From the NCBI GenBank assembly GCA_054600435.1, contig BAAIJX010000008.1:558001-622000 (forward strand): 64,000 nt of DNA, given 5' to 3'. Of this stretch, positions 55,427-58,998 are shown piece after piece. The notes beneath the pieces were generated by a model. It was not told the origin of the DNA. It saw nothing but the letters and a program-made list of their open reading frames with translations, and did not search any database. The DNA comes from Neophaeotheca triangularis. Its lineage: Eukaryota. A program made the position numbers and the translations under genes. Within the stretch, counting starts at the first letter, position 1. Each line of letters starts with the position of its first letter.

Positions 55427-57522
55427 CTAAGCTGCAGAGCCAACCTCGTTAGTACCCTTGTTGATAGACGCGACCATCTTTGCCACCTCTTCGCCAGCGG
55501 TGGTCTCCAACTTTTCCTTCTCGGATGAGTTGGCAAGCTGACTAGCATCACTCACAAGAGCGTACAGCTTGCGAGAGACGTCGCGGTTAATGTCAGTGTA
55601 CTGCTCTACGTTGATCTTGCTGGCGCGGTGGAAGGGTTTCAGAGCCGCTTTGACCATCTGCTGGATGTCCTGTTTGGCGTTCAAGGGCAGGTCGCGAGAT
55701 GGGGAAGAAGAATCGGCGCGTGGTCGCTTTGGGGGTGACTGCTGCTGAGCTTGGCGGCCGCGCTCCACTTTGTCCTTTTCGATGTTCTGATTGTAGGTCT
55801 TGGTGACGTCATAGGCATAGGCGGGCAAGACGCACGAAGAGAGTGGAGGCGAAGAAGGACCTTGGGGTGGGGGCGTGACTGACATGGCACGCGGGGTGGC
55901 CTGGCCAGAAGACATCGGGGAGCGCGCGCGAGAAGAGTTGGCCGGCGAGTACTGGCCATTAGCACCTTCGGAAGCGGCGGGCGACGAGGCGGCACCCGAC
56001 ACCGGGTTGCGCTCGACTTCCTGGAGTAAGGATGAGAGAAAGCTGGGTCCCTCCCCGTTGCGCTGGGCCGCCGTGGTGGACGATTCAGCCTGAGCATTAC
56101 CATCGGCGGTGCGACGAGGGCGCTGAAGACGAGGCCTCTTGAGCTGCGGCTGCTCGGCTGGCCGCGGCTCGGAGGGAGACGCAGGGGAGGCAGTGGCCTT
56201 TCTCTTGCGGGCAGATGACTCGTCAGTGCTGGTATTGAGAGTGCGGGCCTTGTCGAAGGCGTTCCAGGCACGTAACTCGTCCTGAGACTCTGGGTTAGGG
56301 ATGACGGTGGGCGCGGCTTGGCGAATGTGAGGGTTGGCGACGGCACGAAGGCGGGCAATGTTGCGACTTCCCTGGCGGCTGGCGACCTGCAGACGTCTCT
56401 GCCAGCGACGGGACTCCACGCGTTGCTCCTCGGTACGAGTCTCTACGGTATCGTCGTTATCGTACGGGAAATCCAGATCGAAGTCGAGGCGGCGAGCGAC
56501 GGTGTCCCAAACACGGTCCCACTCATTGTCGGTGCGGCGACCACGGCGCGTGGAGGTCGTGCCAGGGCGACGAGAGTGGCGGCCGCTGCGGGTGAGTCTA
56601 GGCAAGACACCATCATTCTCCAGGCTCTGAAGACAGTTGGCGCAGTAGTAGAATTCGGTCGCCTCGTCCATGCCCGAGCAGTACATGTGGACCCTAGTGT
56701 CGCAGCCTTCGCAGTGCATGGTTTCCTGATCCTCATCGATGTTACCGCATACGGCACAAGGCTCCCAAGTCTCTACATCAACCAACTCATCTTCATCAAC
56801 AATCATGGTGGGGTCAATCTCAGCCTGCTGTCGCTTGTCCTGGACGGCATAGGTATGCTCGACGGGACCTCCCTGGTACCGGCTGAGGTGAACCTCATTG
56901 AAGGTGGTGCGGCATGAGGGGCAACTATTGGCACGGTCGACCCACGGCTTGAGACAGACTTCGTGGAGGTAATGCTGGCAAGGTAGGAGGTAGGCGATGG
57001 TTTCGGGATCATCTTCGAGTTTGATGCTGGAACAGCCCGGGTTAGCTTGCTACTTGATTGAGTAAAGTCATCCACAGGCTGGAGGCCTCTCTAGGCCACC
57101 CGACACTGATGCAAAAAGAGCTGGGTGACAGCCTCACCTTCCAAGCTTATTCGGCGAATATTCTTCAAGCCGTCCAAGAGAGGAAGCGATACCCAGCGAG
57201 GGTAGCCGTGTGCGGATGGGCTGGAGAGGCCTCCAGAAGCTTTAGCGCATCGAGTACGGCAAGGCGTGGCGGGATGGGGATGGTATGATCGATCTCGCTC
57301 ATGGGTTCAGGTGAAGTACCTTTGCGTGTTATCGCCGTTCGACTTCAACTTGTCGGCGCCATCGATGGTGCCGACGGATGTAGACGCAGCTTCAATAGCG
57401 GCGGCGTCGGGAGCTCCCGGCGAGCGGTCAGTGTCGATGGAGGTGCGCAGCTCGCTGAGACACACGATGCACTGCTCCGCCTCAGCAGGCATGTCGGTGG
57501 CGGTGGTGGGCGTGTCTGTCAT
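55427..57522 (-). CDS. RING-H2 + PHD finger protein with C-terminal SRI-like domain (Asr1/PHRF1-like)
   Basis: CIVC in exon 1 and CQHYLHEVC...CPSC in exon 2, joined in frame by intron 57027-57319; PHD CAVC..CEGC..H..C..CANC; VKAALKPF...YTDINRDVSRKLY. Confidence 0.87.
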
Positions 57523-58453
57523 GCTTGATACTTCCCCTAACAGTCACAGCTGACAACGAGAGAAGTTGCGCACATGCGCAGCGGGTGGTGATTGTTGTTG
57601 AAGATCGCAGGAGAGAGGGTCTGGAAGTGTGGAAGAGTGAAAGGTGTAGGTCGGGTGTGGGGTTCAGCAGCTTGGGCGATTTATACGTGCATCAGCCAGT
57701 CACGCTAGCGCCTCGGACAGCTTAGCTAAGGCGCCTAGTCTCGATTCGGAAACGACGATGACGTGGAAAGGCAAAGGTCGTGACTGGACAGTCTTGGAAC
57801 AGAGGACAACGAAGTCAACTTGTTGCCTCGGGGAAAGTATTGCTTTGAGAAGTTGTCTTGCCGGGTCCCGCAATGAAGTCTGTACCGCCAACAGAGTGAA
57901 GCAGAGCGTTGGTGACGCGGCGGAGGCAGCCTCGTGCCATTCAACGGGTCGGCGTTCTTCACAAGCAGAATTTATCCCTCTACGGCAGCGGTAAACCTTG
58001 GTTCGAGTTGGCCGTGAGGACATTACAGGCCTTCAGTTTGTCCCACCGACCTGGATGAACAGTGGGTGTTGCTTTGTTGCTGCCGACCTTGCACTTGACT
58101 TGCCCATAACTATTTACAGCCTTACCTTCCTTGAGCGCGTGCGCACTTTCTTATAATTCTTCGAGTAGTGTGGCGGTTCGACGAGCGCAGAGGTGCTGGC
58201 TGCTCAGCCGTTTCGAGTACGCTTCGGGCAGATGCTACAAGTGCAGTCCAATTCTCATCACATCACACGGGCAGGTCGCAAACTCGGTTTCGAAATTGGA
58301 GGCTCGAAGGTTTTGAGGTTCGAAGGTTTGTCATTCGTATAGCATCCGTGCCGGCCCTACTGGATATTCGCTTGAAAAGCCCAGCCAGCAACGCAAAATG
58401 TTGCCCATTCGCAGTCCTCCGTGCACATCAATAACGCCAATGCACAATCCCCC

Positions 58454-58998
58454 TTAAACCTCAGCAATTTCCCTCAGACGCCTGATAGTTGACCTTGTGG
58501 CAGCGGCAGCGGGGGTTCTGCAGGAGTCGAGACGTGTCAGTCATGTCCTGTTTTGGCTCGAGGCTTGCAGTCCGAAGGCTCATTCATGGTGGAGAGGTTA
58601 TAGAACGTACGCGAGGGTGTAGGCACCACCAGCAACAGTCTTCTTGCAGGAGTTGCAGTTCCAGATGCCGACAGAGTGACGCTTGACAGTGTTCTTGCCG
58701 CAGAAGGTGCACATGTAGCGGGCGTGCTGGGTGATTTCCATCTTCTTCACCTGCTTGCGGAGGGAGGCGCCGTAGCTGGAGTCTCCGTCAGTACGCCGTA
58801 TTCACATCTCATTGTCGCCAATGGTAGGGTTCGCTCAAGGCGGTGTCGTCGTACCGTGTGCCATATTTACCGGTCACGCCGACCTCTGAGGTGGTTTGTC
58901 AGTATTCTGCTTCAATTCGTGTCGTCTGCAGACAGGACGCTGTCAAGGCGCCTGTCGAATGATGGTGTAGTTGACATACTCTTGGTGCGCTTCGTCAT
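58454..58998 (-). CDS. RPL43: 60S ribosomal protein eL43 (L37a), 4 exons, absent from ORF track
   Basis: [44 protein letters not shown]...[13 protein letters not shown]...[10 protein letters not shown]. Confidence 0.96.

Follow-up and report, generated by a model that had tools for sequence, protein, structure and literature searches.

The window analysed here is a stretch of 64,000 nucleotides (nt) from the fungus Neophaeotheca triangularis (contig BAAIJX010000008.1, positions 558,001 to 622,000 of the forward strand), and all coordinates below refer to it. On its minus strand lies a gene for a RING-PHD protein whose RING domain is split by a long intron. Inside this intron we found a second, conserved 5′ splice site, embedded in a predicted RNA fold, which is the subject of this report (Table 1). 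Once the two exons are spliced, the CxxC of exon 1 and the CxH..C..CxxC of exon 2 form a RING-H2 domain that is followed by a PHD finger. The joining of 57320 to 57026 is in frame, and the codon across the junction (AG+C) encodes serine.

The protein scores above the Pfam cut-offs for both zf-RING_2 (32.3 bits, cut-off 27.3) and PHD (24.2 bits, cut-off 24). A profile search of the PDB agrees, with matches to AMFR/HRD1 RINGs and to PHD fingers. Thus, the identification of a RING-PHD gene, made in an earlier, sequence-only reading of the locus, is borne out, and we regard the two predicted domains as solid assignments; both are expected of a PHRF1-like E3 ligase. The sole basis for describing the protein as binding the carboxy-terminal domain (CTD) of RNA polymerase II (Pol II) is a C-terminal match to Pfam SRI that stays below the threshold of 23.5 bits (12.8 bits, E 0.15). 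For this C-terminal domain the PDB profile search returned no match, and Pfam scans found no known RNA-binding domain in the protein. At E ≤ 0.001 the part encoded by exon 2 matches 313 homologues. Within the top 120, those that carry a species name belong to Dothideomycetes, the best of them with 73% identity.

Table 1. Features of the RING-splitting intron and its exons in window coordinates (a slash marks a splice position; bp, base pairs; MFE, minimum free energy; ORF, open reading frame)
Feature	Position	Strand	Remarks
Exon 1, coding part	57320..57522	minus	ATG at 57522; 3′ end AAAG in phase 2; carries the first RING CxxC
RING-splitting intron	57027..57319	minus	293 nt; GTACTT ... CTAAC ... 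CCAG; same donor-to-acceptor splice in relatives' contigs L003, L007 and L031
Donor 1, GTACTT	57314..57319	minus	weak, +5 not G; weakness conserved
In-frame TGA, 10 nt beyond exon 1	57307..57309	minus	premature stop if the internal donor is used and the upstream part kept
P1, 5′ arm of predicted long-range stem	57210..57236	minus	MFE, RNAalifold and pair counts; includes the CTCCAG acceptor 57226-57221
Candidate 83-nt cassette	57138..57220	minus	within the P1-closed domain; acceptor not conserved
P2, small predicted hairpin (5 bp, 5-nt loop)	57190..57204	minus	by eye from alignments, no formal count
P3, predicted hairpin, nearly invariant	57136..57187	minus	basal stem pairs the internal donor G/GU
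Internal 5′ splice site AAG/GTGAGG	57132..57140	minus	31 of 31 loci; used in L039
P1, 3′ arm	57079..57106	minus	MFE, RNAalifold and pair counts; self inverted repeat by blastn
Branch-point motif CTAAC	57041..57045	minus	14 nt upstream of acceptor; GCTRAC aligned in most loci
Final acceptor CCAG	57027..57030	minus	sequence reading
Exon 2	55427..57026	minus	second RING-H2 half, PHD finger, long low-complexity region, conserved C-terminal domain; stop at 55427
TGA reached on inclusion of the 83-nt cassette	56803..56805	minus	frame of ORF 56803..57090

The sequence-only reading had described the intron as running from 57319 to 57027 with the donor GTACTT. Within it, the reading placed a GCTAA at 57245-57241, a CTCCAG ending at 57221, a segment at 57220-57138 and a GTGAGG at 57137-57132, which would divide the whole into sub-introns of 99 and 111 nt. 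All of these elements are in place and the lengths are as given. The predicted consequence was also correct, as inclusion of the 83-nt segment shifts the frame and leads to the downstream TGA listed in Table 1. In general, the sequence observation is confirmed, and its interpretation as a cassette switch is partly supported, for reasons given below.

A scan of metagenome contigs yielded 80 loci related to the gene, 74 of which hold the anchor AHLLPC and give 57 distinct regions between the CxxC and this anchor. Thirty-two regions were treated as intron-bearing, a number that takes in the window, contig L039 and three contigs truncated on their 5′ side. A further 24 regions are short, uninterrupted ORFs, namely three spliced transcripts of intron-bearing species (L003, L007 and L031) and 21 distant relatives. 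According to the best named protein hit, the resemblance of the intron-bearing loci is to Cladosporium, to Oleoguttula, Extremus and Friedmanniomyces (Teratosphaeriaceae), to Dothistroma, Aureobasidium and Neodothiora, to Dothideomycetes sp. NU457/NU459 and to Myriangium. Aureobasidium pullulans is among the species with the element (L028 and L029). Their orthologous introns are 198-335 nt long. No intron separates the RING halves in the 21 distinct distant loci (within L037-L079; at most 45% identical to named proteins where measured), and therefore the intron and its element are lineage-specific. Among the Dothideomycetes, the predicted element is kept across several orders.

The internal donor is present at the homologous place in all 31 distinct intron-bearing loci, as GTGAGG in 26 of them, GTGACG in 4 and GTGAGA in 1. 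The triplet before it is AAG (23 loci), GAG (4) or ATG (4), and the second sub-intron, from this donor to the acceptor, measures 73-134 nt. The first donor is just as constantly weak. In each of the 27 loci with exon 1 it reads AAG/GTA and never has G at +5, which extends to the relatives what had been noticed in the window.

Column identity was calculated for 20 aligned Mycosphaerellales- and Cladosporiales-type loci, 19 of which supplied the RING codons. The mean was 0.94 in the 5′ strand of P3, with 22 of 23 columns at least 90% identical, and 0.89 in the 3′ strand plus the donor (23 of 31 columns). For the 5′ and 3′ arms of P1 it was 0.81 and 0.83 (10 of 19 columns each), for the spacer between the left arm and P3 0.46 (2 of 34), and for the spacer past the donor 0.66 (1 of 24). 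The RING codons gave 0.94 at position 1 (30 of 36), 0.96 at position 2 (32 of 36) and 0.68 at position 3 (4 of 36). The region of the internal donor is the best-conserved part of the intron.

A coding reading of this block was considered and rejected. Many database proteins that read into the intron share the short peptide of the window intron, but they do so in different frames, which indicates conservation of the nucleotide sequence and not of a protein. Additionally, insertions and deletions at the tip of P3 are not multiples of three; together with the use of different frames by public models of different species, this means that the block is not coding.

Public gene models of the orthologues conflict at the intron. 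Those at odds over it are P0017, P0020, P0022, P0047, P0103 and P0108, and P0020, P0022, P0047 and P0103 read through all or part of it. In two Pseudocercospora models the conserved block supplies an 11-residue in-frame insert. We rejected a micro-exon in this genus and, since one of the two models lacks part of the RING as well, take both for gene-finder artefacts, which is unproven.

Transcript-like contigs of relatives revealed that the internal donor is used. Contigs L031 and L039, from an Aureobasidium-like species, are 98-99% identical to each other, and a genomic locus, L032, is 95% identical. L031 is the productive splice, with donor 1 joined to the acceptor. L039 retains 125 nt after donor 1, and exactly 73 nt of the genomic L032 sequence (GTGACG to ACAG) are missing from it. 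In this retained form the frame is shifted and a stop is met 11 nt into exon 2. Thus, two donors with a common acceptor are both used in one Aureobasidium-like species. The productive event was seen again in L003, from which the entire 281-nt intron of L026/L004 has been removed. Across the loci, use of the internal donor with upstream retention leads to a premature stop in 26 of 26 loci, which lies in the retained part in 23 of them and just inside exon 2 in the other 3.

Two further contigs, L002 and L004, are short and contain the entire intron, and the ids of their samples are close to those that gave the spliced contigs (L031/L039 and L003). Possibly they represent unspliced transcripts; in that case, retention of this intron would be frequent.

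The L039 contig also bears on recursive splicing, in which the AG before the internal GT would first accept donor 1 and the regenerated donor would then remove the rest, so that a normal mRNA results. The required AAG/GT or GAG/GT is found in 27 of the 31 loci, but the remaining four (L013, L028, L029 and L032) have ATG/GT, and the conserved block lacks a canonical branch motif on its upstream side. Moreover, L039 represents the opposite order of events, which cannot resolve into a productive mRNA. We consider recursive splicing highly unlikely.

The earlier proposal was a poison-exon switch. Its internal 5′ splice site and its premature stop are upheld, but its cassette acceptor and cassette form are not, as the sole transcript evidence, L039, is an alternative 5′ splice site with the upstream 125 nt retained. 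The same reading had called for an alignment of the orthologous introns, and this alignment separates the two sites: the internal donor is conserved in every locus and the internal acceptor is not. We regard the internal donor and the weakness of donor 1, but not the internal acceptor, as exceeding what chance would produce. A YAG directly after the left arm of P1 is present in 13 of 20 aligned loci and missing in L008, L034, L017, L076, L030, L013 and L002.

Nevertheless, the 83 nt at 57220-57138 could be a true poison cassette, entered through CTCCAG, left through the internal donor and terminated at 56805-56803, and it could coexist with the alternative donor. Its sites are present with a good pyrimidine run, both sub-introns (99 and 111 nt) are of plausible size, and the acceptor lies inside the P1 5′ arm, so it would be gated by the same fold. 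Almost any internal AG would bring about a premature stop, and the donor at the 3′ end is functional, being found in all 31 loci and used in L039.

Against this stands, apart from the seven loci without the acceptor, the branch point. YTRAY is the usual branch-point consensus. It was detected upstream of only 5 of 72 candidate internal AGs, in 5 of 23 loci, and it was not found at the 99/83 acceptor site of the window, where the candidate is CTAAA. Additionally, none of the 80 retrieved loci contains a junction between donor 1 and the internal acceptor, and the single alternative transcript seen keeps the upstream part. A cassette is possible in this organism, yet it would not be the conserved feature of the intron, and we find it rather unlikely.

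The internal donor is predicted to lie within a closed RNA domain. The MFE structure of the window intron pairs 57236-57210 with 57106-57079 around the donor, and RNAalifold, applied to 19 sequences, returned both P1 and the hairpin P3, whose basal stem pairs the G/GU of the donor. In single-sequence folds an enclosing helix of 15-24 bp is formed in most loci. Pairs were counted in a covariance-model alignment of 20 strong forward hits. In this model-fitted alignment 94.8% of cells pair, compared with 29-45% when the partners are slid. Both partners have changed in nine pairs, of which P1 holds 8, and the covariation score was reached by 0 of 500 shuffles. P1 has undergone compensatory changes.

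The more distant loci (Aureobasidium, NU457-like and others) scored 16-19 bits, stayed outside the pair counts and were folded singly instead. In L032, L024, L027, L013 and L002 the enclosing helix is formed by unrelated arm sequences; of these, L032 resembles A. namibiae and L024 resembles Dothideomycetes sp. NU457. As for the outcome of the fold, the prediction for 22 of 23 loci is that the internal donor is harder to reach than donor 1, with a median unpaired probability of 0.21 versus 0.53.

Several smaller observations concern the same structure. At the place of P2 other loci have different hairpin sequences, and one Cladosporium-like subgroup has none (by eye, from alignments). The cores of the two P1 arms (57079-57106 and 57210-57236) are nearly one self-complementary word, and because the P1 core is nearly palindromic, the covariance model scores the opposite strand too (19-29 bits). 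By eye, a C-rich motif (CACCT or CCACC) lies 6-20 nt past donor 1 in many loci, in the window at 57295-57313 on the minus strand. It complements the AGGTG of the internal donor and could be an alternative pairing partner. In the distant lineages L024, L036, L080, L032 and L027, positions +3 to +9 of the internal donor have a possible pairing partner in a conserved downstream AGACCTC. In the main group the P1 3′ arm occupies the homologous place, a hint that this arm might engage in two mutually exclusive pairings.

A processed RNA could look much the same, as a closed domain of several helices, about 160 nt long, in which one hairpin hardly varies. The intron could thus release a separate stable RNA, a small nucleolar RNA (snoRNA) or another small RNA, of which the donor-like motif would be a part. 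However, the motif has the canonical form of a donor, and L039 shows it serving as one. A cmscan of 56800-57600 against Rfam 15 with E up to 10 gave four weak hits, all on the opposite strand and none of them to a thiamine pyrophosphate (TPP) riboswitch, so no Rfam family was found on the strand of the gene. C/D or H/ACA boxes were not seen on reading, with no dedicated snoRNA finder run. We regard a separate RNA as very improbable.

The reading that we favour, and hold to be reasonably probable, is a structure-gated choice between alternative 5′ splice sites that leads to an unproductive mRNA and acts as a built-in switch on the output of the gene. Two 5′ splice sites would compete for one branch point and one acceptor. 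The upstream donor at 57319 is weak and would yield the productive mRNA; the internal donor at 57137 is strong and would make, with the branch point and the acceptor, a fungal intron of normal size (111 nt). If it is used, 182 nt would stay in the message and translation would stop 10 nt beyond exon 1. The truncated product would contain the first RING CxxC alone, and the mRNA would be a likely target of nonsense-mediated decay (NMD), which would presumably remove it.

Since donor 1 is weak and the internal donor strong, productive splicing would need the internal donor to be hidden. The conserved fold may hide it by pairing its G/GU in P3, and P1 may loop out the domain of about 160 nt so that donor 1 comes nearer to the branch point. 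The level of functional protein would then be set by how well the fold forms or is held, either co-transcriptionally or by a bound factor. If the fold were released, splicing would pass to the internal donor, in some species perhaps to the cassette, and the reading frame would be truncated. The choice would be regulated rather than constitutive, in answer to some signal, and it would presumably also take place in N. triangularis.

A number of results weigh against this reading. The window intron as a whole has a z of -2.1 for its folding. P3 alone, compared with shuffles, gave -1.0 in the window and -1.5 to -2.0 in three relatives, and in two distant loci the values were +0.3 and +0.85, with one locus at -2.4. 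By itself P3 has no exceptional stability, as many shuffles fold equally well. Being almost invariant, P3 offers little covariation (one double-changed pair). Of 15 loci in which the long-range stem was compared with dinucleotide shuffles, it stands out clearly in 6 (at most 2 of 100) and weakly in 4 (7-14 of 100), and in the other 5 (L002, L028, L027, L080 and L056) it is no better than the shuffles. Furthermore, the pair counts come from related loci and from an alignment fitted to the structure, which favours the structure. A single contig of one relative shows the internal donor in use.

RNA of the organism itself speaks neither for nor against the switch. Five RNA runs hold small shares of the stretch, and the four that were used gave 5 contigs of 161-258 nt. 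Four were placed within exon 2, on 56300-56425, 56551-56808, 56658-56906 and 56786-56995; the fifth, from run X4, covers the 5′ end of exon 1 (57469-57629). All of them lie outside the intron and none has a splice joint. Finally, a constitutive structure that tames a site would look alike in sequence, save for the strict conservation of the site itself.

This last point deserves separate consideration. The intron could be an old, constitutively structured one, perhaps derived from an introner, whose stems shorten the distance from donor to branch point and silence a cryptic donor that arose by accident, with no switch involved. In the Dothideomycetes, the introner-like elements described in the available part of PMC3609843 exceed regular introns in length and are predicted to fold stably. 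P1 would bring donor 1 near to the branch point in this case as well, and the intron is absent from the distant relatives, 21 distinct loci of which have an uninterrupted ORF. However, an accidental donor should decay, and here the donor and about 50 flanking bases are as tightly conserved as codon positions 1 and 2. Introner-like elements are moreover said in the same part of PMC3609843 to degenerate quickly and to exist in hundreds of copies, but we found a single copy in the 64 kb of the window, and a search of 473,491 bases gave one per locus. We judge a purely constitutive role to be improbable.

As for the surroundings of the gene, its neighbour at 58480-58800 on the minus strand has a 93-nt intron (58610-58518) with GTACGT and CTGAC motifs. 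We take this neighbour to be a gene for a ribosomal protein with a zinc ribbon, eL43-type by look. The earlier claim that other introns of the window are several times shorter than the RING-splitting one was checked only in part, against this intron. A regular-expression census of introns in the window gave a candidate count no higher than in shuffled sequence and is hence uninformative.

We know of few examples in fungi of a deeply conserved splice choice controlled by structure, and these are mostly TPP riboswitches. The literature that we searched held no description of the element reported here.

The closest relatives in design are the fungal TPP-riboswitch introns that control alternative 5′ splice sites. 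According to the portion of PMC5882874 available to us, they comprise Type I in NMT1 and a predicted Type III in internal coding introns. As described there, these introns measure 200-400 nt, lie in the coding region and have two donors, S1 and S2, with one acceptor and a stop between. A conserved RNA structure sequesters S2, so that S1 gives the working mRNA, and in some of them the pairing is long-distance. All of this resembles the intron studied here. Unlike in those introns, the Rfam scan gave no TPP aptamer on the strand of the gene, there is no known ligand in our case, the host is a RING-PHD gene and not a thiamine gene, and the domain encloses S2 instead of lying downstream of it.

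With poison exons and other NMD-coupled unproductive splicing the element shares a conserved non-productive choice with a premature stop, as well as intronic sequence conserved far above silent sites. It differs from poison exons in being an alternative donor with retention and not a cassette, and its coupling to NMD is putative. The 45ABC element of plant RBP45 genes is, in the part of PMC13485355 that we used, likewise a conserved structured pre-mRNA motif tied to alternative splicing of the host gene. However, it belongs to another kingdom and has another sequence and another host gene, and self-recognition is not evident in our case, in which the host protein has no known RNA-binding domain. 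Introner-like elements, as outlined in the available parts of PMC3609843 and PMC4457414, are likewise long introns of this fungal class for which stable structures are predicted. Unlike these multi-copy and fast-decaying elements, the one described here occupies, in the sequence searched, a single orthologous site kept across several orders.

In the accessible part of PMC5640933, none of the 15 fungal motifs is placed at such a gene. The portion of a study of Z. tritici that was available (10.1101/2023.04.26.537486) lists ZtIPO323_043800, a 'PHD and RING finger' gene, as flagged for differential isoform usage. Manual inspection in that study did not confirm isoform switching, and the orthology of ZtIPO323_043800 to the gene described here is unverified.

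The invariance of P3 suggests a specific partner, and a specific binding surface would look like a near-invariant P3 beside a drifting, compensating P1. As a speculation, which we ourselves consider unlikely, the P1-P3 domain would be a new fungal sensor RNA. Such a sensor would bind a ligand or a protein and, as the first switch outside the TPP class, decide which 5′ splice site, the productive or the dead-end one, is used in the gene of a chromatin- or transcription-linked E3 ubiquitin ligase. The signal could be a metabolite, temperature, the rate of Pol II elongation, or the encoded protein itself by way of the transcription machinery.

It is worth stressing that the element explains why public gene models conflict at this very spot and provides annotators with a rule for correcting them. 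It also presents a testable logic in a RING-PHD gene, which combines a productive donor that is weak with a decoy that is strong but masked and with a premature stop. If the element responds to a signal, it would represent a new class of regulatory RNA.

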